Assembly: GCA_041581935.1 (NCBI GenBank)
Contig: JBFICP010000001.1
Coordinates: 1-40,544, forward strand
Reading direction: 5' to 3'
From: Gammaproteobacteria bacterium
GTDB lineage: Bacteria; Pseudomonadota; Gammaproteobacteria; HK1
Length of the DNA stretch: 40,544 nucleotides
This document shows, piece after piece, positions 5,225-40,289 of the stretch. Position numbers and translations under genes: made by a program. The number at the start of each line of letters is the position of its first letter. Positions within the stretch are counted from its first letter, which is position 1. The notes beneath the pieces are model-generated. The model worked only from the letters and a program-made list of their open reading frames with translations. It made no database searches and was not told the origin of the DNA.

Positions 5225-6103
5225 TCATGCCTGAACTCCCGACAGGGTCGCGACACCCGCCAGTATCATTCCAATTCCCAGCCATTGCACCCAGGACATG
5301 GCTTCACGTATGACCAGACGCGCAAGCAGAACCGTCACTGCGGAGAATGTCGATGCCAGTACGGCGGTCACGGCAGACGTCGCGTCCTGGCTGCCGGCTA
5401 CCAGCGCCAGAAGCGCGCCGCCGTCGAGAACGCCTTGCGCACACAGAATCGGCCACCAGCGCATTGGTATTCGCGGCATCTCGCGACGGGCCGCGAACAG
5501 CACAATGCAGCAGGCCAGGCTTATCCAGCGACCGAGAAACACGGCCTGGACTTCCCCGTAGATGGCTCCCGCCTCCTGTCCGGCAGCCACGGTGACGGCA
5601 AACGCGAGCGACGCCGCCAGCGCAATCAGCACTGTGATACGAAGGTGTGCACGCGTAAACGCGCCTCGGCTTTCGAAGTGTCTTGCCGAGCGCGCGACCA
5701 CGAAAACACCGACCATGACTGCGGCCATGGCGGCCCACTCCATCGCGCCCGGGCGCAAGCCGAGCGCCAGAGCGAGCAGAATATTGAAGGCTGGAAAGGT
5801 GCCGGCGATCGGTGCGACGATCGTTACGGGCCCGCGCACCAACCCCTGATAGAGCAACAGAGTTGCCAAGGTCAATCCGACGCCCATCAGCAGCAGCAAC
5901 CACCACCCGGCGCCCAGGTCACCGCCCAGTTCGCCGATGGGTAGATCGACGACGAGCACGACGCCGGTAAGAACCACCGCGCTCGCCACCAACATGCCGA
6001 ACAGGGCGTTGACATGACCGACGGCGCCGCCGGTGAAGCGCGCGATGAAGTCCGCGCTGCCCCAGGCGACGGCCGCCACGACGCCACCCAGCGCGGCGTT
6101 CAT
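5225..6103 (-). CDS. EamA/DMT-family transporter (10-TM permease)
   Basis: 292 aa and strongly hydrophobic, with a two-fold repeated 5-TM organisation. The N-terminal AAVAWGSADFIARF is typical of EamA domains. Confidence 0.75.
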   Translation of the reverse strand: MNAALGGVVAAVAWGSADFIARFTGGAVGHVNALFGMLVASAVVLTGVVLVVDLPIGELGGDLGAGWWLLLLMGVGLTLATLLLYQGLVRGPVTIVAPIAGTFPAFNILLALALGLRPGAMEWAAMAAVMVGVFVVARSARHFESRGAFTRAHLRITVLIALAASLAFAVTVAAGQEAGAIYGEVQAVFLGRWISLACCIVLFAARREMPRIPMRWWPILCAQGVLDGGALLALVAGSQDATSAVTAVLASTFSAVTVLLARLVIREAMSWVQWLGIGMILAGVATLSGVQA

Positions 6104-23848: not shown

Positions 23849-25252
23849 TCAATCTGCGCCCGCGCGAGCACCGACGGCCTCGCTCTCTGCGTTGATGATG
23901 CCCTGCTCGTCGGCGAAGCGTTCCGCGTTGGCCCCGACGTCGAGACCGGCGAGCTCCACTTCCTTGGGAATACGCAGCAAGCCGGCAGCATTCAGAATCT
24001 TTGCCGTGACCCAGCCCGGCAGGAATCCCAGCACCCAGAACATGATCACGGCGCCGATGAACTGACCCCACGGGGTAATGACGGCGAACGAGGGGTCCGG
24101 CGAGGACGGGTATCCCCACAGGAATATTCCGGCGATGAATACACCGAAACAGCCCGCGTACCCGTGCACGGCCACCGCGCCGACGGCATCGTCGATCTTG
24201 AATCTCTTCTCCACGAAATAGTGGACCTTGTACATGAAGATCACGCCACCCGCGGCGATGAACATCGCCTGTATCGGATGATACAAATCGTTGCCCGCCG
24301 ATGCGGCGATGATGCCTGCGAGACCCGATGAGTAGGTCCAGAACGCATCGCCTTTGGACACGATGTAACCCATCAGGAGCCCTCCCGAGAGCGACATCAG
24401 GAAGTTGACGGTGATCGCGGACAGCGTGGTTGGCGCGAGATAAATATTGGTCGCCGAGAAGAACACGCCGTCGCCGTCCTGGATATCCCACATGGGCACG
24501 TTGCACGCCACATAGAATCCCCAGAATCCCGTATAAATGAGAAACAGACCGATGGTCACCAGCCAGGGATTGCGCGGATGGATGTTGCGCGGGGTACCGT
24601 CGGCGGCGAATTTGCCGATGCGCGGTCCCAGCACGAACAGGATTCCGAGGGCATACCCGCCGGCGATGGCGTGAATGACACCCGATGCGTAGGCATCGTG
24701 ATAACCGAGCTTTTGCACCATCCAGCCCGCCGAGTGCCAGCCCCAGGCGGCGTCGATAATCCACCACACCGAGCCGATGCCGACCGCCAGAATCCAGAAG
24801 CCGGTCGACTTGATGCGCTCGATCACCGAGCCCGAGACGATGGACGCCGCGGTCCAGGAGAACAGCAGGAATGCCGCCCAGAAAACGCCGTTGATACGCG
24901 CCCATCCGGCCGTGTCATCGGCGGTCAGCGCCTCGGTCGCCGGGGTGCCGCCCATGTGCGGGCCCATGAGCTCGCTCCAGGCCACCGCCCACGGAGCAGA
25001 CTCGATGCCGCCGGTGATGCCGGGGCCGTTTGGGAAGGCGAAATAGATCCACCATCCGAAGAAGAAGAACGTGATTGTCACCAACGGGATGAGCATGGTG
25101 TTCTTCATCAGCGTGTGCATGTGATTCTTGTGCCGGCTGGCACCGACCTCGTACATGCAAAAGCCGACGTGGATGAAGAACATGATCACCACCGTCAACC
25201 AGTAGTAGAACTCGGTAAAGAGTATTCCGAGTGCGGTTAGTTCATTGTCCAT
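23849..25252 (-). CDS. amt: Ammonium transporter (Amt/MEP family)
   Basis: 467 aa, about 11 TM. Amt-type contexts: HVGFCMYEVGASRHKNHMHTLMKN, ASGVIHAIAGGYALG, DDAVGAVAVHGYAGCFGV (both pore His contexts are present). Confidence 0.9.
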   Translation of the reverse strand: MDNELTALGILFTEFYYWLTVVIMFFIHVGFCMYEVGASRHKNHMHTLMKNTMLIPLVTITFFFFGWWIYFAFPNGPGITGGIESAPWAVAWSELMGPHMGGTPATEALTADDTAGWARINGVFWAAFLLFSWTAASIVSGSVIERIKSTGFWILAVGIGSVWWIIDAAWGWHSAGWMVQKLGYHDAYASGVIHAIAGGYALGILFVLGPRIGKFAADGTPRNIHPRNPWLVTIGLFLIYTGFWGFYVACNVPMWDIQDGDGVFFSATNIYLAPTTLSAITVNFLMSLSGGLLMGYIVSKGDAFWTYSSGLAGIIAASAGNDLYHPIQAMFIAAGGVIFMYKVHYFVEKRFKIDDAVGAVAVHGYAGCFGVFIAGIFLWGYPSSPDPSFAVITPWGQFIGAVIMFWVLGFLPGWVTAKILNAAGLLRIPKEVELAGLDVGANAERFADEQGIINAESEAVGARAGAD

Positions 25253-26426: not shown

Positions 26427-27338
26427 ATGTGTGGCATAGCCGGCATCATGTACAAGACCCGGGGCGCTCTGGGAGGCACCGGTCGGGCGCTCATCGACAT
26501 GCTCGACGGCTGCCAGCATCGCGGCCCCGACTCCACCGGATTCGCGCTCTACGGTGACGCCGCCGAAGACCGGCTGCGTCTGCGCTTCTTCGTCGGCGAA
26601 GGCGACGAGGCGGACACGGCCGTGGCGCGCATCAAGGAGCGCTTCGACGAGCACGGCGCCGCCATCGTCGAGGAGCAGCGGGTGGGCAACAACTACCGCT
26701 GCACCGTGAACTTCGACGGCGACCTGCAGAAGTTCGCCTACGCGATGGAGCACGCCGCCAAGGTGATCTCCATCGGCTCGAGCCTGGAGATCGTCAAGGA
26801 CGTCGGCAGCGCCCACGATGTTGACGATCGCTACGGCGTGCACACGCATCAAGGTACCCATGGACTCGGCCACGTGCGCCTCGCCACCGAGTCCGACGTC
26901 AAGCCCGAGGCGTCGCATCCCTTCTGGGCCACGGGCTTCGCCGATGTGGCCATCGTCCACAACGGCCAGATCACCAACTACTGGAAAATGCGCCGGCGGC
27001 TCGAACGACGCGGCTTCGAGTTCACCACCGACAACGACAGCGAGCTCATCGCAGTCTATCTCGCGGACAAGTTGTCCCAGGGCATCTCACTCAAAGACGC
27101 GTTGGCGACTTCCATCGACGATCTTGACGGCACGTTCTCGTTTCTGGTTTCCACCAAGGACGAGATCGGCTACGCCAAGGATCGTCTGGCGGCGAAACCC
27201 ATGATCATGTACGAGACCGACGATCTGATCGCCGTGGCTTCGGAAGAAGTGTCGCTGAATCGACTTTTTCCAGGCCAGGCGCTCAGCACCGTGGAGCCAC
27301 CACCGGGAACTTTTGATACGTGGTCACGATCGATCTAG
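26427..27338 (+). CDS. Class II (Ntn) glutamine amidotransferase-like protein (GlxB/MgsA-like), paralog of 9478..10413
   Basis: It starts MCGIAGIMYK and is preceded by AGGAGG. Motifs: HRGPDSTGFALYG, HVRLATESDV, IVHNGQITNYW, NDSELIAVYLAD. Confidence 0.9.
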   Translation: MCGIAGIMYKTRGALGGTGRALIDMLDGCQHRGPDSTGFALYGDAAEDRLRLRFFVGEGDEADTAVARIKERFDEHGAAIVEEQRVGNNYRCTVNFDGDLQKFAYAMEHAAKVISIGSSLEIVKDVGSAHDVDDRYGVHTHQGTHGLGHVRLATESDVKPEASHPFWATGFADVAIVHNGQITNYWKMRRRLERRGFEFTTDNDSELIAVYLADKLSQGISLKDALATSIDDLDGTFSFLVSTKDEIGYAKDRLAAKPMIMYETDDLIAVASEEVSLNRLFPGQALSTVEPPPGTFDTWSRSI

Positions 27339-29278
27339 CGAAAATCCGGGTTCGTGAAGCGAACGAGCTCATCCGCAAGCACGGAGCCGCGGGTGAGGAC
27401 GTCACCATCGTCAATCCCGATGCCCGCCATCACATCGGCGTGGGGCTCACCGACCCGATCAACGTGCACGTCAAGGGATCGGCCGGGTACTTCTGCGCGG
27501 GCCTGACCGATCGGGCGCGCTTCGAGGTCGATAACAACGTCGGCTGGGGGCTCGGCGACAACATGTACAGCGGATCGGTGGTGGTGCGTGGCAACGCCGG
27601 CGCCATCGCCGGCGTCGGCATCCGCGGCGCGGAGCTCGTGGTCCACGGCAACATCGGCTCGCGCGCCGGCCAGGTCATGAAAGAGGGCACGCTCGCCTGT
27701 GCCGGCAATGCCAACTTCATGGCCGGCTACATGATGTACGGCGGGCGTATCATTATTCTCGGGCATTCCGGCGAGCGCGTCGGCGAGGACATGACCGGCG
27801 GCACCATATTCGTCGGCGGCGACGTGCAGTCGCTGGGCTCGGATGCCGAGCAGGTCGATATCGAGGACGCCGAAAAGGAATCGATCCTGGAGTTTCTCGA
27901 TCGTTACCAGATCAAGCACCGCGGAACGTTCAGCAAGATCGTCAATGCCGGCAAGAAGCTGCGTTACGGCTCCGCGGAGCGCCAGATGCGCAGCCTTCCC
28001 TTCTTCGGCTTCTCCGGCACCTCCGAGTACTGGAACCCGAAGGTCCAGGAGGACATCCACATCAAGGCCCAGAGCGGGCGCTACCGCATTCGCGGCTACG
28101 GCGGCGCGCGGCCGTTGCCGCATGTGGCCGATCTGGCGTTCAAGAAGGACCTCTCCGGGGCGGGGCGCGACCCCGACGTGATCTCCAAGGTTCGGATGTA
28201 CACCGAGATCGGCGGCATCAACGGCGCCGAGCCCCTGAAGCTCAGCATGCCGGTGATGATCGCGCCCATGAGCTACGGGGCGCTCAGCCGATCCACCAAG
28301 CAGGCGGTGGCCATGGCCTCGGCGATGTCGAAAATCGCCGAGAACACCGGCGAGGGCGGCATGAGCGACGCGCAACGCGACGCCGCCGGGCAGCTCATCT
28401 TTCAGTGCCTCGGCGGACGGCTGGGCTGGAACATCCACGACATGAAGCGCGCCGACGGCCTGGAGATCTACATCTCCCAGGGCGCCAAGCCGGGACTCGG
28501 CGGCCAGCTCATGGCCAAGAAAGTCACCAAGGAGCTCGCGGCGATCCGCGGAATCCCCCACGGCATTGATCTCCGCTCGCCCTCGCGGCACCCGGACATC
28601 CTCGGCGCCGACGATCTGGTCATCAAGATCGAGGAGTTTCGCGAAGCCACCGGCTACCGGTTGCCGGTGAGCGTGAAGCTCGGTGCCGGGCGCGTGCGCG
28701 ACGATATCAAGATCGCGGTCAAGGACGGTTTCGACTTCGTCGAGCTGGACGGCATGCAGGGCTCGACCGGCGCCGGCAGCGGCGAGGTCATCGACTTCGT
28801 CGGTATTCCGACGCTCGCGGCGATCATGGAAGCGTTGGACGCGCTCGAGGAGATCGGGCGTCGCGACGACATCGAGATCGTGCTGATGGGCGGGCTGCGC
28901 GACGGCGTCGACGCGGTGAAGGCGCTGTGCCTGGGCGCGGACGCCGCCGCATTCGGCACCTCGGTCATCATCGCCGGCGGCTGCATCGCCTGCATGCAGT
29001 GCCACGTGGGCCAGTGCGTCACCGGAATCGCGACCCAGGACCCGGAGCACGAGAAGCGCTACAAGCCCAACGTCGAGGCGGAGAACATCCACCGGTTTTT
29101 GGAAGGCGTACGCTGGCAGATTGCCGCCATCACCCAGGGGCTCGGTTACGACGATGTGCGCGCGCTCAATCGGGACGATCTGGTGGCGCTGACACCGGAG
29201 GCGGCCGCCATCACGCGCTTGCCTTACGCGCCGGAGTACCGCAAGCGCAATCCGGAGCTCTCGGTGCAGGCGGGCTGA
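27320..29278 (+). CDS. Fusion protein: GXGXG domain + FMN-binding glutamate-synthase domain (GlxD+GlxC-like)
   Basis: 652 aa. The N-terminal half carries GXGXG repeats (GSAGYFCAGL...GNAGAIAGVGIRGAELVVHGNIGSRAG...GHSGERVGEDMTGGTIFVGG). The C-terminal half carries IAPMSYGALS, TGEGGM, SQGAKPGLGGQLMAKKVT, DGMQGSTGAGS, GGLRDGVDAVKALCLGADA, CIACMQCHVGQCVTGIATQDP. The GTG start overlaps the upstream gene by 19 nt. Confidence 0.9.
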   Translation: MVTIDLAKIRVREANELIRKHGAAGEDVTIVNPDARHHIGVGLTDPINVHVKGSAGYFCAGLTDRARFEVDNNVGWGLGDNMYSGSVVVRGNAGAIAGVGIRGAELVVHGNIGSRAGQVMKEGTLACAGNANFMAGYMMYGGRIIILGHSGERVGEDMTGGTIFVGGDVQSLGSDAEQVDIEDAEKESILEFLDRYQIKHRGTFSKIVNAGKKLRYGSAERQMRSLPFFGFSGTSEYWNPKVQEDIHIKAQSGRYRIRGYGGARPLPHVADLAFKKDLSGAGRDPDVISKVRMYTEIGGINGAEPLKLSMPVMIAPMSYGALSRSTKQAVAMASAMSKIAENTGEGGMSDAQRDAAGQLIFQCLGGRLGWNIHDMKRADGLEIYISQGAKPGLGGQLMAKKVTKELAAIRGIPHGIDLRSPSRHPDILGADDLVIKIEEFREATGYRLPVSVKLGAGRVRDDIKIAVKDGFDFVELDGMQGSTGAGSGEVIDFVGIPTLAAIMEALDALEEIGRRDDIEIVLMGGLRDGVDAVKALCLGADAAAFGTSVIIAGGCIACMQCHVGQCVTGIATQDPEHEKRYKPNVEAENIHRFLEGVRWQIAAITQGLGYDDVRALNRDDLVALTPEAAAITRLPYAPEYRKRNPELSVQAG

Positions 29279-29279
29279 C

Positions 29280-31823
29280 GTGGCCGTCTACGATATCAAC
29301 CGCATTCTCGTGCCGAAGGCGCCGCCCGAGTACCGAGACGATACCGCCGACATACATTACGTGCCGGCGCCCTGTCAGGTGGCGTGCCCAGTCGGCACCG
29401 ACGCGCCTTCCTATCTCGCCTACATCTGGGAAGGCAAGTACGAGGAGGCCTTCGAGGCCATCACGGCGACCAATCCGTTCAGCTCCATCTGCGGGCGCGT
29501 ATGCGACGCGCCGTGTGAGCCCGCCTGCCGGCGGACTTCCGCGGACGGCGCCGTGCAGATCCGCAATCTCAAACGCTTTGTCATGGACAAGGTGGGCCAT
29601 CGGTACGATCCGCCCGCCATACCCGTGACCAAGTCCCAGAGCGTGGGCATCGTCGGCGCGGGCCCCGCGGGACTGGTCGCTGCACACGATTTGTGCGCGG
29701 CGGGCTACTCGGTGGATGTTTACGAAATGACCGATCGGCCGGGCGGCATGATGGTGTGGGGCATTCCCGCGTTTCGCCTGCCGCCGGGCATCATCGAGGA
29801 AGATATCCAGCGCCTCCGGCAGCGTTGCCCGGGGCTCACCATGCACTTCTCGACGGCGCTCGGACGCGACATGAGCCTCGATGAATTGAAGCAGCGCCAC
29901 GACGCGGTGTTGCTCACCATCGGCTCCTGGTGGGGCAAGACCATGGGCATTCCCGGCGAGGACGACGAACGTGTCGTCGACGGCGTCGGATTCCTGAGGC
30001 GCGTGAACGCCGGTGAACGTCCGGAGCTTCCCGAGACAGTGGTCGTTGTCGGCGGCGGCGATGTCGCCATGGACGCCTGCCGTGTCGCCAAGCGCCTGCC
30101 CGGCTGCAAGACCGTCAAGGTGATCTACCGGCGCGGACCCGACGAGATCCCCGCGCGGCGCATCGAGCTCGAAGGCGCCGTCAAGGAGGGCATCGAGTTC
30201 GTCTACAACACCCAGCAGGTGTCGGTGGCCGCGCACGGCAATCAGCTCAGTCTTCGTTGCGTGCGCACCGAGGCCGGCGAGCCCGGCGAGGATGGCCGGC
30301 GAAGGCCGGTGATCGTGCCGGACAGCGAGCACGACATCGCCTGCGGCATGGTCATCGCCGCGGTCGGCCAGCAGGCCGAGTGTGAAGAGCTCGATCGGCG
30401 CGGCATGATGAGACCCGATCGTGTGCGCGCGGAATTCGATCGCATGCGCACCGATGACGCGAAAGTCTTCGCGGCCGGCGACGGGGCCTTCGGGGGATCC
30501 ACCATCGTCATGGCCATGAGTCATGGCCAGCGCGCGGCCTACTACGTCAAGGCGTTCCTGGAGGGGCGCGACGAACCGATGCCCTATCGAACACCCTATC
30601 GCACGCGGCGCGTGCCGGTGGCCCAGGATCTGCTGTGGGAAAAGCTGCCGGTGCAGGAACCCGAATTTTTCGGCCTCGGTAAAAACCCCATCGAATTTCC
30701 GGAGATCGAATCGACCTACGACGAGGAGACGGCACGCAAGGAAGCAGCACGCTGTTACCGCTGCGATGCGGAGACCGGATCCGCCGATTACTCGGTGCGT
30801 CATCGCGAGGATCTGTTCTCCATGGCGCGCACCAACGTGGTCGATCACGTCAAGCACAAGGCGATGCTGGATCGCCGCCTGCGACTGCGGGAAAACCCGT
30901 TTCCCGAGGGTCGTGCACCGAGCCTCGACGATTTGATATTCCTGCCTGCCAACCTGTCGCGCCTGGTGATCGACCCGTACCGCGAAGCGTGCCGGATCAG
31001 CACCGATCTCGGGGGCAAGCTGGATCTCGAGATGCCGTATCTGGCGACCGGATTCGACGACGCACCGACGGATGTGCGCATCGCCGTGGCCACGGCGCTA
31101 GCCACCCTCGGTTTGAGCTACGTGGGCAAGCGCACCATCGATGAGCGCGCCGACGGCCGCGTGCCCTGGCTGCAGCTCGTCGTGCCCGGCGAGTCCGATC
31201 CGAGCGCCTCGGCGAAAGCGCTTGTGCACGTGCAGAAGTCCGTCTTTCAACCACCGGCGCTGACTCGCCTGCACGCGGATCAGCTGCTGGGTATGGCGGT
31301 CTCATCCACCGAAATTCTCGAGCAGTGCATCGTCCATGCCCTGGAGCACGAATTCGACATGCTGCTGCTCGACGCCACGCGTGGAATCGAGGGACGCTGG
31401 CCGGAGCTCTCGGGGACGCCGAATCCGAGCATACTCCGTGACGCCATCGCCATTCTCCGGCGCCTGGGGCAGGAGGAGGAAATCGACCTGGTGTATTTCG
31501 GCGGCGTGCGCTCGGGCACCGATTCCGCCAAGCTCATCGCGCTCGGCGTCAAGGCGGTGGTGCTGGGCACGGCGCTCGGAATCGCCGCGGGCGGGGCCAT
31601 CTCCGCTGGTGCCAACCTCGAGTTCGCACCGGACTGGAGCGAGGAAGAGCGCAGCGGCGGCATCGTCAATATCGTCAACGCCAGCGCCGGCGAAGCCTCG
31701 ATGATGGCGCGCTGCACCGGCAAAACGAATCTGCACAACCTCGAGCCGGAGGACCTGCGCGCGATCACCATCGCGACCTCGCAGGCGATCGGCGTGCCGC
31801 TGACCGGACTGCGCCCGGCGTAG
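29280..31823 (+). CDS. Fusion protein: GltD-like Fe-S/FAD/NAD(P)H oxidoreductase + C-terminal degenerate glutamate-synthase-like TIM-barrel domain
   Basis: 847 aa. The N-terminal Cys clusters are PCQVACPVGTD and CGRVCDAPCEPACRR. Also present: VGIVGAGPAGLVAAHDL...DRPGGMMVWGIPAFRLP, VVVVGGGDVAMDACR, VFAAGDGAFGG. The C-terminal third aligns by eye to the FMN-domain proteins (LIFLPANLSRLVIDPYRE..., FGGVRSGTDSAKLIALGVKAVVLG, MMARCTGKTNLHNLEPEDL). It lacks their MSxGALS and GSTGAG strings. The GTG start lies 1 nt after the upstream stop. Confidence 0.8.
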   Translation: MAVYDINRILVPKAPPEYRDDTADIHYVPAPCQVACPVGTDAPSYLAYIWEGKYEEAFEAITATNPFSSICGRVCDAPCEPACRRTSADGAVQIRNLKRFVMDKVGHRYDPPAIPVTKSQSVGIVGAGPAGLVAAHDLCAAGYSVDVYEMTDRPGGMMVWGIPAFRLPPGIIEEDIQRLRQRCPGLTMHFSTALGRDMSLDELKQRHDAVLLTIGSWWGKTMGIPGEDDERVVDGVGFLRRVNAGERPELPETVVVVGGGDVAMDACRVAKRLPGCKTVKVIYRRGPDEIPARRIELEGAVKEGIEFVYNTQQVSVAAHGNQLSLRCVRTEAGEPGEDGRRRPVIVPDSEHDIACGMVIAAVGQQAECEELDRRGMMRPDRVRAEFDRMRTDDAKVFAAGDGAFGGSTIVMAMSHGQRAAYYVKAFLEGRDEPMPYRTPYRTRRVPVAQDLLWEKLPVQEPEFFGLGKNPIEFPEIESTYDEETARKEAARCYRCDAETGSADYSVRHREDLFSMARTNVVDHVKHKAMLDRRLRLRENPFPEGRAPSLDDLIFLPANLSRLVIDPYREACRISTDLGGKLDLEMPYLATGFDDAPTDVRIAVATALATLGLSYVGKRTIDERADGRVPWLQLVVPGESDPSASAKALVHVQKSVFQPPALTRLHADQLLGMAVSSTEILEQCIVHALEHEFDMLLLDATRGIEGRWPELSGTPNPSILRDAIAILRRLGQEEEIDLVYFGGVRSGTDSAKLIALGVKAVVLGTALGIAAGGAISAGANLEFAPDWSEEERSGGIVNIVNASAGEASMMARCTGKTNLHNLEPEDLRAITIATSQAIGVPLTGLRPA

Positions 31824-31873
31824 AGCGTTTTCGGGGAATCCGATATTCTCTCGCGGGCAGGGGAATTCGATCC

Positions 31874-31932
31874 TGTAGCAGCACCGTCGGTTGGGCTTGG
31901 CTGCGCTTCGCCCAACCGACGGTGCTCCTACA
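31874..31932. repeat. 59-nt REP-like palindrome between the gltD-like fusion and the GS gene
   Basis: The perfect 16-bp arms are gcaccgtcggttgggc (31881..31896) and gcccaaccgacggtgc (31910..31925). They are extended by tgtag/ctaca with one mismatch. The element shares the GGTTGGGC core with 22896..22914. Confidence 0.75.
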
Positions 31933-31965
31933 TGAGAAAATCAAAAAACGAATGGGAGGTTCACC

Positions 31966-33273
31966 ATGGCCGTTGATCTCGACAAGATCGCGAAATCCGA
32001 GGGCATAAAGTACTTTCTCATCAGCTTCGTCGACCTGTTCGGCGTTCTGCGCTCGAAGCTCGTTCCGGCGCGCGCCATCGCCCAGATGCAGGCCGACGGC
32101 GCGGGATTCGCGGGATTCGCCGCATGGCTGGATATGACCCCGGCCGACCCGGACATGTTCTCCATTCCCGATCCGGAGAGTCTCATTCAGCTGCCCTGGA
32201 AACCGGAGGTCGCGTGGCTTGCCGGGGATCTGTGGATGGACGGCAAACCGGTGGAGGCATCGCCCCGCATCGCACTCAAGCGCCAAATCGAGAAGGCCGC
32301 GGGGCAGGATCTCTACATGAAATCCGGTGTCGAGTGCGAGTACTTTCTGGTCAATTCAGACGGCACTGCGATTTCCGACGATCGTGATATTCAGGAGAAG
32401 CCCTGTTACGACCAGGCGGCGCTCATGCGCCGCTACGACGTCATCAGCGAAATTTGTGATTGCATGATCGAGCTTGGCTGGAATCCCTACCAGAATGACC
32501 ACGAGGACGCTAATGGTCAGTTCGAAATGAACTGGGATTACACCGATACCCTGGTGACAACAGATCGCCATGTGTTCTTCAAGTACATGGTGAAATCGAT
32601 TGCCGAGAAACACGGACTGCGAGCGACTTTCATGCCGAAACCGTTTCCGAATCTTACCGGCAACGGCTGTCACGCCCATGTATCGGTGTGGGACAAGTCG
32701 GGAAGCGTGAACAAATTTTCCGATGACAGCGACGAGATGGGCCTATCGAAGCTTGCGTATCAGTTCCTTGGCGGCGTGCTGCACAATGCCGACGCGCTTG
32801 CAGCAATCTTCAATCCCAGTGTCAATAGCTACAAGCGCATCGATGCGACGGTGACGCTCTCCGGCGCCACCTGGTCGCCCAATGCCATTAGCTATTCCGG
32901 AAACAATCGCACACACATGGTTCGAATTCCGGATCCCGGCCGCTTCGAGCTACGCTTGATGGACGGCGCTGCCAATCCGTACCTGCTGCAGGCCGGTGTC
33001 CTGGCCGCGGGTTTGGACGGTATCGCTAACGCAAGGGATCCGGGCGAGCGGCTGGACATCAACATGTACACAGAAGGACAAAGGCTGCGGCGAATCCGCC
33101 GGCTTCCCTTGAACATGCTCGATGCCGTACGCCTGTTCGACAAGAGCAAGGTTCTACGCGAAGCCTTCGGTGATGAGCTCATCAGCAGCTATGTGAAGCT
33201 CAAGCTCAAGGAGTGGCAAAGCTACTCGACCACCATTACCCCATGGGAGCGCGACCATACGCTCGATGCTTGA
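31966..33273 (+). CDS. Glutamine synthetase family protein, GlnT (rhizobial type-III nomenclature) / GmaS-like, 435 aa
   Basis: Motifs: NDHEDANGQFEMNW, MPKPFPNLTGNGCHAHVSVW, NPSVNSYKRI, GNNRTHMVRIP, DGAANPYL. A GGGAGG SD is present. The size matches GlnT/GmaS-type enzymes. Confidence 0.9.
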   Translation: MAVDLDKIAKSEGIKYFLISFVDLFGVLRSKLVPARAIAQMQADGAGFAGFAAWLDMTPADPDMFSIPDPESLIQLPWKPEVAWLAGDLWMDGKPVEASPRIALKRQIEKAAGQDLYMKSGVECEYFLVNSDGTAISDDRDIQEKPCYDQAALMRRYDVISEICDCMIELGWNPYQNDHEDANGQFEMNWDYTDTLVTTDRHVFFKYMVKSIAEKHGLRATFMPKPFPNLTGNGCHAHVSVWDKSGSVNKFSDDSDEMGLSKLAYQFLGGVLHNADALAAIFNPSVNSYKRIDATVTLSGATWSPNAISYSGNNRTHMVRIPDPGRFELRLMDGAANPYLLQAGVLAAGLDGIANARDPGERLDINMYTEGQRLRRIRRLPLNMLDAVRLFDKSKVLREAFGDELISSYVKLKLKEWQSYSTTITPWERDHTLDA

Positions 33274-33316
33274 TCGCCGCCTGCGCAGCTCTGCAGGAGC
33301 GAGTTACCTTCCGGGA

Positions 33317-33793
33317 ATGAGCGCGCTCGCGAACCGGAGGCGTCGGTGTTCACGGGCAAGCGCGCTTTTACGACGCGTCTTCGTTAGTTGCGCGCTAATG
33401 ATACTCGCGAGCTGCGGAACGATTTACGTCAATCCGGCGGACCGCAATCCGAAGTATCTCAAGGAGACCGATTTCATTTCCAGCCGAAACACGGAAATGA
33501 CCTATCGACGCATCTACACCATGCTGTACCGGTGCACGAGTGGTTACTATCGTATTCGGGGCAACTACGACCCGGATGCACGGCACGCGGAGATTTCGGT
33601 GGACACGGGCGTCGGATTCCAGAACGACCTCTATTTTGCGGATTCCCACGTGATGCGCATCGTTATCGACGCCGACGGACTCGAAAAGAGCACGGTACAA
33701 ATCAAACAGACGAGTCGCCACGGCGCGCCGTTCGCGAACGCCATGGCACAGTGGGTGAACGAAGGCAGCGACGACTGCGCTGCCGGATCCTAG
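33317..33793 (+). CDS. Putative lipoprotein, unknown function
   Basis: A basic N-terminus is followed by a hydrophobic stretch and the lipobox ILASC-G (ALMILASCGTIY). The start is uncertain (the track ORF begins at 33266). Confidence 0.55.
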   Translation: MSALANRRRRCSRASALLRRVFVSCALMILASCGTIYVNPADRNPKYLKETDFISSRNTEMTYRRIYTMLYRCTSGYYRIRGNYDPDARHAEISVDTGVGFQNDLYFADSHVMRIVIDADGLEKSTVQIKQTSRHGAPFANAMAQWVNEGSDDCAAGS

Positions 33794-34149
33794 CGGGAAG
33801 ACTTGCGTTTGCCGTTCGACGAGGAGCTGGAGCTCCTTCCGTCTCTACCCAGCTTCTTCAGCTTAGACTGAAGCTGGTCGATGGTCTGCATGTTCTCACC
33901 GTAGGCTCTGACGAGCTGTCGCGTGAGATCGGACAGCCCCTTGATCGCGATGGTCAGGTCGTCCTTTCTCGCGTTGACCAGGTCGATCTGCATGAGGACC
34001 AGGCCAGCCACGTCCTCGGGGCGCGAAACGATCCGCGGTTGCTGAGCGGCGGCTGCCTGGTCGGCGGCGGCGCCCGGGGGCGGCGTGGCCCTGGAGCCCG
34101 GATTCTGGTCATCTCTCGTGCTGGCCGATTCCTGAGTGCCTTTGGTCAT
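33790..34149 (-). CDS. Hypothetical protein with a Pro/Ala-rich N-terminus, a predicted coiled-coil core and a Ser/Lys/Arg-rich tail
   Basis: 119 aa. It contains ...LVNARKDDLTIAIKGLSDLTRQLVRAYGENMQTIDQLQSKLKKLG...SSSSSNGKRKSSR. I recognise no family. It is convergent with the lipoprotein gene, overlapping by 4 nt. Confidence 0.45.
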   Translation of the reverse strand: MTKGTQESASTRDDQNPGSRATPPPGAAADQAAAAQQPRIVSRPEDVAGLVLMQIDLVNARKDDLTIAIKGLSDLTRQLVRAYGENMQTIDQLQSKLKKLGRDGRSSSSSSNGKRKSSR

Positions 34150-34484
34150 GGCTCGTGCGTCCTTAGATGGTGGGTTCGGAAACGGTCCCTACGCACCGCT
34201 TCGACATGTCCTTTATCGGCCGGATCCCGGGATAGTTTAGCCATCCGAGGCCCCGGCACGGCCCCGAGCCGCGGGCGAGGGCCGCGATCGGCTCACCCGG
34301 CGTGCGGGGGGTGCGCGATTCGCCCGGTTCGCGCGGTGGAGGTGTCCCGAGCGTGACGGAGTCGGCAATTTGCGTGCTTCCGGGGCGTCAATCGTCACAG
34401 CGGTGTAGCGCCCAAGGTTTAAGGAATGCCGGATCCGGCCGATACTCCTTTTAGGAATTTAGTTAACCGCCAGAGGGGTGAGCC

Positions 34485-35249
34485 ATGGCTTACGCCATCC
34501 CCAAGATACCGGCTTCGGACAAGGAACCGCCGGCCGAAGCAGGAGAAGAGGCCCCGAATACCCGGGATGCCGATAGGCGGCACGTTGCCTGGCTGCAGCT
34601 GCACCCTGAAAAACGCGGCGCGGACCCCTATCGCTACGTCCTGCTTCTGCGCTTCACCCTTCTGAATCTGTTCGGCTTCGGCCTCCTGGGCGCGGCCTAT
34701 GCCCACGGGCTCGTGGCCATGGCTCTGGAAGCCGATCGGACCTATCTGTCGCTGGTCATCTTCCTGGTGTTTCTCGTCGGGCTGGGCTTATCGGCCCACA
34801 AGGTCTGGCAGACCAGCCATGAGCTCAACAGCGTGCGCGACTTCGAATCCGGCGACGACTCTCCGGCGGCTCGCTACCTGGCCCCGATGCTGGACGGAGA
34901 CGCGGACAGCCGCGCCAACCTGGTCGGAGCCCTGCGAATGAAGATTGCCCACCGCACCGCGGTGGTGCGCCACATTGCCAACAGCCTGGTTCTGCTAGGA
35001 CTGATCGGCACGGTGGTCGGCTTCATCATTGCGCTCGGCGGCGTCGATCCCGAGCACGCATCCGATGTGAAAGCCATTGCGCCCATGGTATCGACGTTGA
35101 TTCAGGGCATGTCGACGGCACTCTACACGACTCTTATCGGCGCCGTGCTCAATGTCTGGCTGATGGCGAATCACCAGGTTCTCGCTGGCGGCACCGTGAA
35201 GCTGATCACGGCACTGGTGGAAATGGCGGAGATCCATGCGCGAGATTGA
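34485..35249 (+). CDS. MotA/TolQ/ExbB-family proton-channel protein
   Basis: 254 aa. The family signature in the C-terminal helices is NSLVLLGLIGTVVGFIIAL...LIQGMSTALYTTLIGAVLNVWLMA. N-terminal TM helices are present. A GAGGGG SD is present. Confidence 0.85.
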   Translation: MAYAIPKIPASDKEPPAEAGEEAPNTRDADRRHVAWLQLHPEKRGADPYRYVLLLRFTLLNLFGFGLLGAAYAHGLVAMALEADRTYLSLVIFLVFLVGLGLSAHKVWQTSHELNSVRDFESGDDSPAARYLAPMLDGDADSRANLVGALRMKIAHRTAVVRHIANSLVLLGLIGTVVGFIIALGGVDPEHASDVKAIAPMVSTLIQGMSTALYTTLIGAVLNVWLMANHQVLAGGTVKLITALVEMAEIHARD

Positions 35250-35841
35250 CCTTTTCGACGACGAAAGCGGCGCCACCGTGTTTCGCGACGTGATCATGCT
35301 GGCGCTCGCCGGATTCGTGATGATCGTCATGTTGCTTCTCCCGCACATCAATCCCCGTGCCGCTGAAGAGCAGGAAGCACGCAGCCCTGGAAACGTCATC
35401 GTCGAGCTGCGCTGGCCCGACCACATTGACGCAGACGTGGACCTTTGGGTGGAGGGCCCGAATGATTCACCGGTCGGATATTCGAACAAGGATGGAAGGG
35501 TGTTCAATCTGCTGCGAGACGACCTGGGACGCGATTCAGACCTGACCGATCTCAATTACGAGTTCTCGTATAGCCGCGGCGTCCCCGCGGGAGAGTATAC
35601 GGTCAATGTGCATTTGTATCGAAACAGCGGGCATTACTATCCAATTCCGGTCACTGTCGCGGTCAGCGTGAAAGGTAACGACGCCTCGTCGTCACAACGC
35701 TTGCTGAACACGAAGCTGGACCTTCTGCGTGAAGGACAGGAAACCACGGTGTTTCGCTTTCAGCTCAACGAAAATGGCGATCTCATAGCAGGAAGCGTGC
35801 ACGATCTTCCGCGCGCGCTGCGCAGCAGGGTGAAATTGTGA
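35236..35841 (+). CDS. ExbD/TolR/MotB-like membrane-anchored protein with a non-canonical (DUF2135/YfaP-like?) periplasmic beta-domain
   Basis: 201 aa. It overlaps the MotA-like gene by 14 nt. The single TM has a conserved-position Asp (TVFRDVIMLALAGFVMIVMLLL; compare ExbD F-I-D-V-M-L-V-L-L). The periplasmic part is VIVELRWPDHIDADVDLWVEGPNDSPVGYSN...PAGEYTVNVHLY. Confidence 0.7.
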   Translation: MREIDLFDDESGATVFRDVIMLALAGFVMIVMLLLPHINPRAAEEQEARSPGNVIVELRWPDHIDADVDLWVEGPNDSPVGYSNKDGRVFNLLRDDLGRDSDLTDLNYEFSYSRGVPAGEYTVNVHLYRNSGHYYPIPVTVAVSVKGNDASSSQRLLNTKLDLLREGQETTVFRFQLNENGDLIAGSVHDLPRALRSRVKL

Positions 35842-36377
35842 CCGAGCTCTATATCTTGTTTGCCGCGTCGACGGCGCTGGCTGCTCTTCTGGCGATGATC
35901 AGCATTTGGTCGCATCGCAAGCTGACCGCCAAGGTGACGGCATTGGTAGCAACTGCGCTTTTCATCCCCACGGTGTACATGAGTTACTCTGATCTGCTGA
36001 GCCGCCCGAAGCCCGCCAGTCTGGAATGGTGGCACCGGGATGCGTCTGAAGCCACAGTCGTCGGCTCGAAGCTGCGAGAGGGGGAAGCGATCTATCTGTG
36101 GATCGAGTTGGCGGAGGCCGACGAGCCGCGTGCCTACCGGTTGCCCTGGGCGCAGGAGCTGGCCAAGCAGCTCTACGGCGCTCAGCGCGAGGCGGAGGCA
36201 AAAGGAACGAAGGTGAAGATGCGCTTGCCGTTCAGGAACCGAACCGACGAGCAGGAGCTGCTGTTCTACGCTCAACCGCAGCCGCCGCTACCGCCCAAGA
36301 GTGCCGGGCGCGAATCATCCAGCTACTTTCAGCATTCCAGCACGCGTTCAAGGCGCAACGACATCGGCGGAAGCTGA
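35838..36377 (+). CDS. Hypothetical 2-TM membrane protein, third gene of the MotA-like module
   Basis: 179 aa. Its start and the upstream stop overlap as GTGA. The TM helices are LYILFAASTALAALLAMISIW and VTALVATALFIPTVYMSY. The soluble C-terminal part has no recognisable motif. Confidence 0.6.
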   Translation: MTELYILFAASTALAALLAMISIWSHRKLTAKVTALVATALFIPTVYMSYSDLLSRPKPASLEWWHRDASEATVVGSKLREGEAIYLWIELAEADEPRAYRLPWAQELAKQLYGAQREAEAKGTKVKMRLPFRNRTDEQELLFYAQPQPPLPPKSAGRESSSYFQHSSTRSRRNDIGGS

Positions 36378-37475
36378 CGGTTTGCGGCGGCGATCGGCAC
36401 CGAGCCGTGGTGCCGGCGTAATGACCGACTGAAATGCCTGGCCACGGTCGGGCGCCTGCGCCTCGTCGGGCATCGTCGAGGCATCGGGAATCGCGATCGT
36501 CAACACGACACCCAGAGCGCCCGCGGCGACGACTGCCACGCGCCATCGGCGCAACAATCCCCACGGTCGGCGTTGCGGACCTTTTTCGCCAGCCATGATT
36601 CGCTCGAGGAGTTCCCTGGCGACGGAGCCGACGGCGCCGACGAGTCCGCGGGATCTGCGCGTGACAATCGATACCAGATCGGCATCGAACGGGCTGTCGC
36701 CGACCAGACCGGCGCGACACAGACACATGTGCAAATAATCACTGACCTGTTCGTGGTCGAATCGAGGCATATCGAACGTGGCGACGGCACCCGAAAAGCG
36801 AGCGGTCCCGGGGAGCGCTTCGAGGTGCGGCATCAAGTCGGGCTCGGCACCGATCAGAAACCGAACCCCGTATTTCTCCCAGCGCTTGGCAAGGTACTTG
36901 AGCTGGCCGAGGGCATCGGGCTCGAGAAGGTGGGCGTCATCGATGACGATGACGACGTTGCGCGAGCGAGCCGTGATCATCTCGAGAAACGTGTCCGCAT
37001 CCCTCAGCTCGGCAACGACCGGTTCGCGCAGCGGCAGACCGAAAGTCGATACCAGTGCGTGAGTGAGCGCCTTGGCATCGTATTGGACAAGCCCCCGCAG
37101 GTAGAAAACCCTGAATCGTCCGGCTGCTGCTGCGGCGACCATATCCAGCATGGTGCTCTTGCCGCTGCCCGGTTCGTCGACCAGCAACACGTTGGCGTGC
37201 TCGAGCGCCCGGCCAAGCTCTTCGAGGCGCGCGGTGAGGGCCGGCGTGCTGAAGTAGAACGCGCGGTCCGCGGTGTTTGGGAAGGGCTCCTTTTCAAAGC
37301 TGAAGGCTCGCATACGCAGAAAGGATCGGCCGTCTTCGTCGGTAATTGATAGGAATTCGTCCCGGCCTTTGGGTTTACCGTCACATCGTTCATTCGGTGG
37401 AGGCGGGACACCCGGAGCGAGACGGTGCGCAAACACCTCGTCCCCCGGCGACAAGGCGTCATCCGTCGCTTGCAT
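36348..37475 (-). CDS. ExeA/GspA-like AAA ATPase with a C-terminal TM anchor, lacking a peptidoglycan-binding domain
   Basis: The ExeA-type N-terminus is FEKEPFPNTADRAFYFSTPALTARLEEL. Walker A is LLVDEPGSGKSTML and Walker B is VVIVIDDAHLL. The C-terminal TM is WRVAVVAAGALGVVLTIAI, with only about 45 residues after it. The start is at 37475 or 37313 (MRAFSFEKEPF). Confidence 0.75.
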   Translation of the reverse strand: MQATDDALSPGDEVFAHRLAPGVPPPPNERCDGKPKGRDEFLSITDEDGRSFLRMRAFSFEKEPFPNTADRAFYFSTPALTARLEELGRALEHANVLLVDEPGSGKSTMLDMVAAAAAGRFRVFYLRGLVQYDAKALTHALVSTFGLPLREPVVAELRDADTFLEMITARSRNVVIVIDDAHLLEPDALGQLKYLAKRWEKYGVRFLIGAEPDLMPHLEALPGTARFSGAVATFDMPRFDHEQVSDYLHMCLCRAGLVGDSPFDADLVSIVTRRSRGLVGAVGSVARELLERIMAGEKGPQRRPWGLLRRWRVAVVAAGALGVVLTIAIPDASTMPDEAQAPDRGQAFQSVITPAPRLGADRRRKPSASADVVAP

Positions 37476-37668: not shown

Positions 37669-38532
37669 TCAGGTCCGATAGCGCTTTGCTCTGGTGAGCA
37701 TTTCCGGTAACCCGACGATTGCGTTCTGGGACTCGAAGTCGAGCATCTTGTCGAGCTGGGAGATGGTCGTTCCTTCTCTTTTCAGTGTCTCGAGAAACGG
37801 CTGCAGCTGCTTGCCGATGAAGCGCCCGATTGCACCCGGGTGTATGACGATGGAGAACCCCAGCCGCTCGAGCTGCTTCGCGGGCAGCAGCGGCGTCATG
37901 CCCGTTTCCACCATGTTCGCGAGCAGTGGCGCGTCAAGGCTTTTGCCGATTCGCTCGAGCTCCGCCTCGCTGCGGGGCGACTCGACAAAGATGACGTCAG
38001 CGCCGGCCGCCGCGTAAGATTGTGCACGCTCGAGGGCTTCGTCGAGGCCGAGCACACCACGCGCATCGGTTCGCGCGATGATAATGAAGTCCGGGTCTTG
38101 GCGGGCATCCAGGGCCGCCGCCAGCTTGCCGAGCATATCGGACACCGGGATCAGGCGCTTGTGGTCAAAGTGCCCGCAACGTTTCGGCATCTCCTGATCT
38201 TCGATGTGGCAGCCTGCGACGCCGGCCCGCTCGTAGGCGCGAATGGTTCGCATGACGTTGACGGCGTTGCCATAACCCGTATCGGCATCGGCGATGAGGG
38301 GGATTTCGACGGCATCCGCGATTCGCCCAGCCTGGTCGAGCATCTCGGAAAAGCTAACGAGCCCCAGGTCCGGCACGCCGAGGCGCGAATGCGAAACACC
38401 GGCGCCGGTCATGTAGACGGCCTCGAATCCCGCCGTCTCCACCATGCGTGCCAGATAGGCATCGTAGGTCCCGGGACAGAGCAGAATCTCCGGCCGCTCG
38501 ATGAGGGCTTTGAGTCGCGTCGTCTTGCGCAT
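37669..38532 (-). CDS. Isocitrate lyase / PEP mutase family enzyme (2-methylisocitrate-lyase-like, KRCGH motif)
   Basis: Motifs: PGTYDAYLARMVETAGFEAVYMTGAG, ADADTGYGN, HIEDQEMPKRCGH, IIARTDA. I prefer ATG 38532 (MRKTTRLKALIE). The track ORF extends to 38598. Confidence 0.85.
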   Translation of the reverse strand: MRKTTRLKALIERPEILLCPGTYDAYLARMVETAGFEAVYMTGAGVSHSRLGVPDLGLVSFSEMLDQAGRIADAVEIPLIADADTGYGNAVNVMRTIRAYERAGVAGCHIEDQEMPKRCGHFDHKRLIPVSDMLGKLAAALDARQDPDFIIIARTDARGVLGLDEALERAQSYAAAGADVIFVESPRSEAELERIGKSLDAPLLANMVETGMTPLLPAKQLERLGFSIVIHPGAIGRFIGKQLQPFLETLKREGTTISQLDKMLDFESQNAIVGLPEMLTRAKRYRT

Positions 38533-38629
38533 CGGCGCTAGCCTAACATCGCGGCGCAAAAAAATGTCGATCCCGGTCTCACCGGAATTCGAATCCAACC
38601 TGCCGCAGGGGCGGGCGTTTCGACCGGGC

Positions 38630-39124
38630 TCAGTTGCCGACCCGCTGAAGTCCGTCGTCGAGAAAATGCTCCAGCTTCTGATAGTCGTCGCCGTCGAAGC
38701 TCTTGAACCGCAATCCGATGCGGTATTCGTTTTCCGCTACCCGGCGCGAGAATACCGCCGTGCAGCGCGTGTCGATGACGTCGGGCATGCCCGAGGACTC
38801 GGGAAAGCGCAGCCGCACGTCCACCTCCCGGGTGCTACTGGGAAGGCGGCGCTGGTCGAGGGGCAGAATGCTGTTTACCGTGATCCGATCGCAGGCAATC
38901 TGGATACCCGCCGGCGACAGGTTGACGGTGATGGCGTGGATGAGCTCGCCACTCGCTGTCGACACCTCCACGGGAAGATGCGCCGGGACCCTCGGATAGT
39001 CTCTTTTATACTTTCTCACGCGGAACTTCGCTGGCTGGGTGCGGCCACTGGCATGCTGAAGTGCGGGCCCATCAGCACCGCACCTCCCCCTGATCGAAAG
39101 CTTAGCCCAAGGACTCGTCGACAA
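38630..39124 (-). CDS. PilZ-domain protein (c-di-GMP receptor candidate)
   Basis: An RxxxR-type motif (RVRKYKRDYPR) is followed about 25 residues later by (D/N)xSxxG (NLSPAGIQI). The start is uncertain. Confidence 0.65.
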   Translation of the reverse strand: MSTSPWAKLSIRGRCGADGPALQHASGRTQPAKFRVRKYKRDYPRVPAHLPVEVSTASGELIHAITVNLSPAGIQIACDRITVNSILPLDQRRLPSSTREVDVRLRFPESSGMPDVIDTRCTAVFSRRVAENEYRIGLRFKSFDGDDYQKLEHFLDDGLQRVGN

Positions 39125-39344: not shown

Positions 39345-40289
39345 TCAGGCCGTGTTGCGCCTGCGCCGCGCCTCGGCGAGCGGTAACGCGCGCCGCTCCT
39401 CCTCGTAGGTGTCGCAACGTTCCAGGTATTCTCTGGTGCTCTTCGGCATCGGCACCCGCGCACCCGATATATAGGTGAGCAGGTCATTACCATCGGAAAT
39501 CAGCCGCATGCCCTGATCGATCATGCGCAGCTCGCTGCTGGAGGCGTGCTTGGAGATCTGCGGCCGGAACCCGAGCAGTGCCTCGCCGGCCGCTACGAAG
39601 CGCGGCCAGATTTCGAATATGGCGGTATCGGTGCGGATGGTCTCGCTCTCGAGCTTGGCTGCTTCGCAAACTTCCTTGATGAGCGGGCCAGCCCCGGAGA
39701 AAGCCCGATCGTCGGCGAACAGCTCGCACATCCTTGCGCCGATCATGTCGATGTTGCGCATGGTTTGAGCGATTTTGACGTAGCGCGAGTTGTAAAAATC
39801 CTCGATGCTCATGGTGAATGCCTTGAGCGGCTCGCCCCACAGCTCGTCGATGCCCTCATGACCGCTGTAGTGCTTGACGGTCTTTCCGAGCTCCAGCGCC
39901 TCCTGAAAGTAGTCGCCGCACTGGCGCATGAGCTCGTTGTCCGGGCTGATGTGAACGCCTTTTTCTCCGAGATCGACCACCGTTGTGAAAATGTCTGCGG
40001 CCCGATTGAATAGCGCGCCCGCGAGCATGGCGCCGTTGACGCGCTTCCTGGCGGGGTCCGGTTCGGCGTCGAAGGCGCTGCGCGCGAGGTCAAGGCTCTC
40101 GCCGGGAGTGTTGATGCCGTGCTCGGTATGATGGAACAGCCGCCGGGTGAGGCTATCGATGAGGCGCTTCTTGGCGGTCAGTGATTCCTCGGGCGGGGCG
40201 TAGTACCGAATCCAGTATCCGTCAAAATAGATGCAAGGCTTGGCGCCGACGTCCTTTCGAGTGCCGTTTTTTACTTTTTTTGACACCAC
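39345..40289 (-). CDS. Hypothetical 314-aa soluble protein, no recognisable domain
   Basis: The GTG start is preceded by GAGGAG (40290..40300). The predicted protein is helical and hydrophilic (…FYNSRYVKIAQTMRNIDMIGARMCELF…). I recognise no TM segment and no catalytic motif. Confidence 0.65.
   Translation of the reverse strand: MVSKKVKNGTRKDVGAKPCIYFDGYWIRYYAPPEESLTAKKRLIDSLTRRLFHHTEHGINTPGESLDLARSAFDAEPDPARKRVNGAMLAGALFNRAADIFTTVVDLGEKGVHISPDNELMRQCGDYFQEALELGKTVKHYSGHEGIDELWGEPLKAFTMSIEDFYNSRYVKIAQTMRNIDMIGARMCELFADDRAFSGAGPLIKEVCEAAKLESETIRTDTAIFEIWPRFVAAGEALLGFRPQISKHASSSELRMIDQGMRLISDGNDLLTYISGARVPMPKSTREYLERCDTYEEERRALPLAEARRRRNTA

Follow-up and report, generated by a model that had tools for sequence, protein, structure and literature searches.

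A gene trio of proteobacteria and phages as a candidate proton-driven machine with a MotA/ExbB-type subunit and two new partners

The subject of this study is a trio of overlapping genes, hereafter A, B, and C, at positions 34,485 to 36,377 of a 40,544-nucleotide (nt) stretch of gammaproteobacterial DNA (contig JBFICP010000001.1, assembly GCA_041581935.1), which as a whole is called the window. We favour, with moderate confidence, the reading that the trio is a single proton-driven machine, complete in itself, of the MotA/ExbB (5:2 motor) kind, with two new partners. An initial annotation of the window had suggested that the genes encode a MotA/ExbB-type unit standing alone, with a periplasmic partner of a new type, and this proposal was supported by profile searches, by synteny, and by conservation of an Asp in the transmembrane (TM) helix of B. 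One conserved lineage of the trio is present in proteobacterial chromosomes and many others in phages. The three genes and their junctions are as follows.

34485..35249 (+), gene A, 254 amino acids (aa), ATG start (open reading frame [ORF] call)
35236..35841 (+), gene B, 201 aa, ATG start (ORF call)
35838..36377 (+), gene C, 179 aa, GTG start (ORF call)
35236..35249 (+), A/B overlap of 14 nt, indicative of translational coupling (overlapping or abutting A/B junctions recur in related loci)
35838..35841 (+), GTGA, stop of B on the GTG start of C (start of C backed by N-terminal alignment)

Conservation of the trio in bacterial chromosomes

B was found to be the best conserved of the three proteins. 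It had 5304 homologues at E<=1e-3 in a clustered protein database, and its profile gave 1782 clusters at 50% identity; the homologues of C numbered 254. The bacterial scan, with one genome per species, yielded 76 loci, 74 of them with a full B, in the Gammaproteobacteria (Granulosicoccaceae, Acidiferrobacterales, Chromatiales), Betaproteobacteria (Burkholderiales), and Alphaproteobacteria (Rhodospirillales and others). The triad was syntenic elsewhere, a point for which the initial annotation had suggested a neighbourhood check: of the 74 genome loci, 71 had A, B, and C together on a single strand with their order unchanged, and C was syntenic with B in 72. Across all loci examined, bacterial and phage, A:B:C was 1:1:1 in 137 loci, with gene order and strand likewise preserved, and distant members fetched one by one showed the same trio. 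Between the window and its beta- and gammaproteobacterial homologues, the identity was 65-73% for B, 46-70% for A, and 42-56% for C. De novo clustering of the neighbouring ORFs revealed nothing else conserved beyond the lineage level; among the neighbours were malate synthase, ABC-F, CinA, Map, and SfsA. Moreover, the trio was kept at one locus across a bacterial family.

A locus on a 3.67-Mb metagenomic contig (L080, 6719-9630) was arranged as B'-A-B-C-C', with one A, two B (53% identical), and two C genes. Among all loci examined, duplicated B and C occurred in this single lineage; since the sole lineage with two B also has two C, we took the arrangement as a sign of B-C pairing. With one A-type gene and two B-type paralogues, the L080 lineage resembles AglR-AglQ-AglS. 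However, AglQ and AglS are TolR-like, that system has no C-type protein, and the trio is not accompanied by Glt partners.

The chromids of Azospirillum brasilense and A. argentinense also carry the trio, with B 60% identical. There, the divergent neighbours of the trio encode an Amidase_3 cell-wall amidase, a BON-domain protein, and a TPR protein; a BON protein was also near the trio in locus L084 and a PG_binding_1 protein in L184. These neighbours give weak hints of an envelope link. By tblastn, NZ_CP059450.1 and six other Azospirillum chromids had two places for B per record, and the second copy was not within 8 kb of the located one (L091). An 'Autotransporter' match upstream of the trio in L077 was not conserved and was discarded as irrelevant.

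Some copies came from bins assigned to other phyla. Locus L001 (CAXMNG010000274.1), from a bin labelled Salibacteraceae (Bacteroidota), encodes a B 93% identical to that of the window and has the same downstream genes, and bins labelled Nitrospiraceae and Phycisphaeraceae carry copies of the proteobacterial type. All three off-taxon assignments are probably binning errors rather than transfers.

The three proteins of the trio

Protein A scored 30.9 bits against Pfam MotA_ExbB (PF01618; gathering cut-off 22.9, E 2.6e-7, residues 153-239), which bears out the MotA/TolQ/ExbB channel signature noticed in it at first; its Azospirillum homologue scored 34.0 bits. Judged by these matches, A is a divergent member of the MotA/TolQ/ExbB superfamily. 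Its scores against the NCBIfam models of TolQ (11.1 vs. a cut-off of 221), ExbB (11.0 vs. 135), and PomA (13.4 vs. 341) gave no assignment to canonical TolQ/ExbB. The NCBIfam ZorA models gave 10-16 bits against cut-offs of 100-700, and ZorA models were also the best PADLOC matches, local only and covering about 60 residues. The Pfam match corresponds to the following feature.

34941..35201 (+), TM3-loop-TM4 core of A, residues 153-239 (Pfam match region)

In 27 aligned homologues of A, G172, G175, T176, G179, T215, T216, and W225 were invariant. In the viral copies, G175 and G179 were kept in 65 of 65 and T216 in 59 of 65; position 176 was Thr or Asn, and T215 was often Ser. The charge bias (net charge +4.1 in the TM2-TM3 loop, -2.5 in the TM3-TM4 loop) gave a MotA-like topology with four TM helices and the N-terminus inside. 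The first ~50 aa are variable, the cytoplasmic TM2-TM3 loop is short (~50 aa), and by alignment the C-terminus lies ~25 residues past TM4.

A therefore shares the 4-TM, N-in topology of MotAB/PomAB, and the closest solved relative, found with a profile of the 27 homologues, was MotA (8gqy, E 1.3e-3). B likewise shares with these stators its TM Asp. In contrast to MotAB/PomAB, B has neither a plug nor an OmpA domain, and no flagellar genes are nearby. Since the loop of A is only ~50 aa long in the window and ~10 aa in phages, A has no MotA-type torque-generating interface.

Protein B is bitopic, with these features.

35287..35289 (+), GAC codon of Asp18, N-terminal end of the TM helix, candidate proton-binding residue
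35287..35349 (+), TM helix of B, residues 18-38 (AlphaFold helix 10-38; conservation)
35392..35823 (+), beta-sandwich domain of B, residues 53-196 (AlphaFold; conservation)

The initial annotation had placed the TM Asp in the ExbD/TolR/MotB position, and the residue proved to be conserved. Asp18 was present in 16 of 16 sequences of a first alignment, in 138 of 143 diverse representatives (~96%; 150 representatives at 50% identity were sampled and 143 scored), and in 75 of 78 viral copies. The TM helix is followed by a conserved boundary motif, P36-H37-x-N39-P40. In the domain behind it, about 15 polar or aromatic residues are nearly invariant; the near-invariant positions include W60, D67, D69, W71, G81, R94-D95-D96, G98, N107, E109, R114, N124, and H126. 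By the strand assignment of the model, these residues alternate along adjacent strands, and they would thus be expected to share a single side of the sandwich with an invariant Asp/Asn/Arg/Trp patch, an arrangement familiar from modules that bind ligands.

An AlphaFold model of B built from a 94-sequence alignment had a predicted local distance difference test score (pLDDT) of 93. In this model, a helix spanning residues 10-38 leads into an all-beta sandwich, with no helix in the periplasmic domain; an earlier model from 16 close sequences (pLDDT 66, uninformative in Foldseek) was superseded by it. Because the model is all-beta, the fold is neither ExbD/TolR-like nor OmpA-like, as had been claimed of this domain. 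The profiles gave the same picture. B had no Pfam, NCBIfam, PADLOC, or PHROG family, and neither had 94 diverse members scanned singly. Pfam ExbD did not match the B of the window at E<=1 and was absent from the 25 families that came up most frequently for the 94 members; OmpA matched none of the members, and MotB_plug matched one of 94 (E 0.009). No sequence relatives of B were found in the PDB by single-sequence and profile searches. The best Foldseek hits were DUF4425 (3u6g) and a Ca-bound Parabacteroides protein (2lge), with E ~5e-3 and probability 0.97-0.98, but the identity was ~10% and the TM-scores lay at 0.3-0.45. These two soluble proteins come from structural genomics, have no assigned function, and are uninformative on the mechanism of B. 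The other Foldseek neighbours were large uncharacterised phage proteins (viral models).

Because B shows no charge bias across its helix, its orientation rests on the analogy with MotB, ExbD, and TolR, by which its domain would lie in the periplasm and the Asp18 end of the helix on the cytoplasmic side.

In protein C, a pair of TM helices precedes a C-terminal domain of ~110 residues.

35847..35987 (+), residues ~4-50 of C, TM hairpin joined by a positive loop (alignment)
36000..36302 (+), predicted periplasmic domain of C, residues ~55-155, OB-fold-like (conservation; sub-threshold DUF4131)

The net charge is +2.9 in the loop, +0.5 after TM2, and -0.2 at the N-terminus; by this bias, the positive loop indicates that the N-terminus is outside and the C-terminal domain in the periplasm. 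The domain, with the motif LLSRPKP and a conserved FYAxPQPxxPPK tail (F143...P152-P-K154), may follow a strand-strand-strand-helix-strand pattern. C had been described at first as a 2-TM protein of no family. This held for the C of the window, which matched no Pfam (including DUF4131), NCBIfam, PADLOC, or PHROG family and had no relatives among solved structures by single-sequence or profile search; it held less well for its homologues, since 12 of 26 matched Pfam DUF4131 in register (profile positions 3-106), all below threshold and at best with 28.0 bits (E 2e-6; cut-off 31.6). We treat the resemblance as a lead, short of membership. DUF4131 is the N-terminal module of ComEC, composed of a TM helix pair and an OB fold, and it also occurs as a stand-alone protein (PMC5031224). 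C resembles this module in its layout, a TM helix pair followed by a small domain predicted to be beta-rich; however, it has no competence or beta-lactamase domains, and the trio is not linked to competence genes.

The likeness of the trio to ExbB-ExbD-TonB and TolQ-TolR-TolA deserves attention. In each case three inner-membrane genes are adjacent in the same order. A falls with the channel subunits of these systems into Pfam MotA_ExbB, one of its helices bearing the GxxGT motif and another Thr residues; B crosses the membrane once, through a helix that begins with an Asp; and C, like TonB and TolA, combines a membrane anchor with a periplasmic domain and a segment rich in Pro, here the short tail PQPxxPPK at its end. 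The trio could accordingly be read as a very divergent Ton/Tol system (A as ExbB/TolQ, B as ExbD/TolR, C as TonB/TolA) that energises uptake or stabilisation at the outer membrane and in phages forms an auxiliary host-boosting set. Phage-borne ExbB-like genes have been read before as auxiliary uptake genes (PMC11361711), and one phage-like contig with the trio also encodes a PstS-like protein. We nevertheless hold this to be quite improbable. Unlike the Ton and Tol channels, A has four TM helices, and its TolQ, ExbB, and PomA scores are far under the cut-offs. The domain of B is a beta-sandwich instead of the alpha/beta fold of ExbD/TolR, and ExbD is absent from the 25 families most frequent among the matches of its members. 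C is a two-helix hairpin with a predicted OB-like domain; it matches no TonB or TolA profile and so has neither a TonB_C nor a TolA domain, its TM1 is without a conserved His, and it has no long, periplasm-spanning linker. No outer-membrane partners are linked to the trio; TolB, Pal, CpoB, and a TonB-dependent receptor were unlinked in every lineage. On the membership tests of B and C, the Ton/Tol assignment was rejected for both proteins.

The trio may also form no motor at all. In that case A would be a remnant or an ion channel under regulation, and B and C would be small, unrelated proteins of the envelope that merely happen to travel together. Such a view would appeal to the MotA_ExbB match, which spans only TM3-TM4, to the missing charge bias of B, and to the lack of direct evidence for A-B-C assembly. 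However, the fixed order and the 1:1:1 ratio in 137 bacterial and phage loci, with nothing else conserved, speak against it, as do the overlapping reading frames, and a conserved charged Asp in a TM helix is hard to explain outside a channel complex. We regard it as very unlikely.

Carriage of the trio by phages

A tblastn search of cultured phage genomes with B found ten records from nine phages, all rhizobiophages. In the temperate rhizobiophage 16-3 (L087), A corresponds to p038 (138 aa), B to p040, and C to p042, with the unrelated small ORFs p039 and p041 at the two junctions; the trio is preceded by p036 (L087 4244-5143), a trypsin-like periplasmic protease, and is next to the immX immunity region. 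The temperate RHph_TM3_3_14B (L088) has the same set adjoining its att site, with a Seg-like homing endonuclease gene (5258-6016) between A and B. In the 171-kb RHph_I1_18 and in the 68-kb RHph_N3_19 group, which from their gene content appear to be lytic, the trio lies among early-type genes, with a nucleotidyltransferase, an exonuclease, tRNAs, and endonuclease VII as neighbours.

IMG/VR was searched with DNA patterns. Those derived from close relatives gave no matches; a hand-made degenerate pattern for LLRDDLG...D....N.E returned 89 stretches, all 89 of which encode B and 63 of which encode A-B-C in order, the remaining loci being mostly cut by contig ends. The contigs range from 36% to 69% GC and reach 347 kb, and an SbcC-like protein, an R2K ATP-grasp protein, and a primase-helicase are encoded among the neighbours. 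A trypsin-like serine protease with an N-terminal signal or anchor is encoded just 5' of A in 38 of these 89 viral loci. This linkage reaches down to 42% B identity and 30% protease identity, and the protease may be a fourth, phage-specific component. No PHROG family was found, even for the phage copies.

In average-linkage clustering of B, the 74 genome loci and the window formed one clade at >=45% identity, and most phage copies fell into other clades. Since cellular and most phage B occupy separate clades, the lineages are old and separate. The phage A proteins are only 129-140 aa long; they keep the four helices with almost no cytoplasmic loop (~10 aa), while phage B and C retain their domains. 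The nearly loopless phage A argues against a cytoplasmic output of the trio, which is probably periplasmic.

The phage copies raise the question of defence. The trio could be a superinfection-exclusion or anti-phage complex at the periplasmic face of the inner membrane, loosely Zorya-like, that blocks phage DNA or breaching of the envelope, with the OB fold of C facing the DNA. The positions beside immX in 16-3 and at the att site of RHph_TM3_3_14B are in keeping with this, as is carriage of the module by all 89 IMG/VR contigs found. Carriage by phages with a lytic-type gene content fits as well, since lytic-type phages in general encode exclusion proteins. Like ZorAB, the trio contains a non-flagellar, stand-alone MotAB-like pair tied to phage biology, and A has the weak local similarity to ZorA models noted above. 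C in turn resembles the N-terminal module of ComEC, a predicted DNA binder (PMC5031224), although below threshold.

Against a role in defence, no effector, whether a nuclease or of another kind, accompanies the trio, and B, C, and the neighbours match no PADLOC model. Unlike Zorya, the trio has no long cytoplasmic ZorA tail, no ZorB-type peptidoglycan-binding domain, and no ZorC, ZorD, or ZorE, and it is carried by phages themselves. Furthermore, housekeeping and metabolic genes, and not variable defence islands, surround the cellular clade, which keeps to one locus throughout a bacterial family, and an identity of 65-73% for B across beta- and gammaproteobacteria is unusual for defence genes. 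We therefore consider defence unlikely, though less so than a Ton/Tol origin.

A bolder form of the motor reading is that the trio represents a new, largely phage-borne class of proton-driven 5:2 motors, one lineage of which was domesticated in proteobacterial chromosomes, with a beta-sandwich axle and an OB-fold partner doing mechanical work where the inner membrane faces the periplasm; DNA or a glycan polymer in transit would be a possible substrate. We put this forward tentatively, as a possibility with less than even chances.

Proposed mechanism, flanking genes, and significance

For the self-contained machine that we favour, the following working model is proposed. A would form a proton-conducting ring in the inner membrane, and B would sit within this ring, its Asp18 taking up and releasing protons. 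B would hold its compact beta-sandwich just above the membrane on the periplasmic side, where the polar and aromatic face is a putative binding site whose ligand might be a glycan or a divalent cation. C would be anchored beside the ring via its hairpin, with the OB-fold-like domain exposed to the periplasm. Proton flow would turn A relative to B, and C would serve as the transducer or the substrate-holding partner, by analogy with ExbB-ExbD-TonB and TolQ-TolR-TolA. The target may be an envelope polymer or something crossing the periplasm. Since the linkers of B and C are short, the two proteins probably work near the inner membrane and not at the outer membrane. We infer complex formation, rotation, a ligand, and the cellular role of the trio.

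Several observations weigh against this model. The 5:2 stoichiometry and the rotation are drawn by analogy from known motors, and the OB-like fold of C is predicted from sequence, its DUF4131 link being below threshold. The evidence for B-C pairing is one duplication event, and the bacterial neighbourhoods give no consistent functional hint. In A, the Pro that precedes the GxxGT motif of aligned MotA is absent, and T176 is Asn in half of the viral copies. The helix of B, as described above, is without charge bias.

The flanks of the trio in the window were read for ~8 kb upstream and ~4 kb downstream with Pfam, NCBIfam, and PADLOC scans. The initial annotation had seen no TonB, Tol, flagellar, gliding, or Zorya partner nearby, and the scans likewise found no such genes over these distances. 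No prophage genes were seen in the window. The GC content of the trio equals that of its flanks and hence gives no sign of recent transfer. The N-termini of A, B, and C align with those of their homologues, so the annotated starts are correct; the coordinates, both overlaps, the quoted peptides, and the Asp codon of the initial annotation were all verified in the sequence. A scan for promoters and terminators gave nothing exceeding the shuffled expectation. One further signal precedes gene A.

34472..34478 (+), Shine-Dalgarno-like AGAGGGG, 6 nt 5' of the gene A ATG (sequence; presumed function)

Upstream, a run of genes at 26427-33273 (+) encodes GATase-domain, Glu_synthase/GXGXG, Pyr_redox_2/Fer4_20, and glutamine-synthetase-like proteins, and an ammonium-transporter gene lies further upstream at 23849-25252 (-). 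Its domain content appears characteristic of methylamine use by the N-methylglutamate route. A 175-aa putative lipoprotein with a LASC lipobox (33266-33793, +), the start of which overlaps the end of the glutamine-synthetase-like gene, and a 119-aa ORF (33790-34149, -) follow. Both are kept at 71-84% in L002 and L003 and are without a Pfam or NCBIfam family.

Downstream, a convergent gene lies at 36348-37475 (-), its 3' end and that of gene C having 30 nt in common. It encodes a 375-aa AAA_22 ATPase that is weakly similar to the PEP-CTERM-associated ATPase and has the ExeA-like layout of a C-terminal TM helix and a short tail. A PEP-mutase/isocitrate-lyase family gene is at 37669-38598 (-). 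An ICL/PEP_mutase gene (L181 4103-5377) also lies 2 kb 3' of the trio on an unrelated phage-like metagenomic contig, which may be a coincidence. A PilZ-domain protein is encoded 2.3 kb 3' of the trio (38630-39124, -), a linkage found only in close relatives; PilZ proteins are able to bind flagellar stator units (PMC11725899). The ATPase, PilZ, and PEP-mutase genes were considered as parts of the system and rejected, since L001 and L002, the two closest relatives, are the only loci where they accompany the trio. The last of these genes (39345-40289, -) is a 314-aa ORF, 81% identical in L001 and L002, with no Pfam, NCBIfam, or PADLOC match.

The trio had been put forward as a candidate undescribed system, and it remains one: no published description was found in the literature, and neither B nor C has a curated family. 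The trio does not appear in the available parts of two recent surveys of such motors (PMC12505986, PMC12204202), according to which more of them await discovery (PMC12204202, PMC12505986).

The MotA/ExbB-type motors that are understood are, to our knowledge, few, namely the flagellar MotAB/PomAB, ExbBD-TonB, TolQRA, AglRQS, GldLM, ZorAB, and SiiAB. Each known motor of this type revealed a different use of inner-membrane proton flow at the envelope. The trio adds to them a large family, with its 1782 clusters, and two partner folds unseen in known motors. Its minimal phage ring subunit of ~130-140 residues suits structural work, and tractable carriers are at hand in Azospirillum brasilense and in Sinorhizobium meliloti with phage 16-3. 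Carriage by phages changes the biological framing, as the module is not only a cellular envelope system, and its presence in several kinds of phage implies a role in infection biology. If the largely phage-borne class of motors outlined above is real, phages and cells would gain an energised gate that controls what crosses the envelope.

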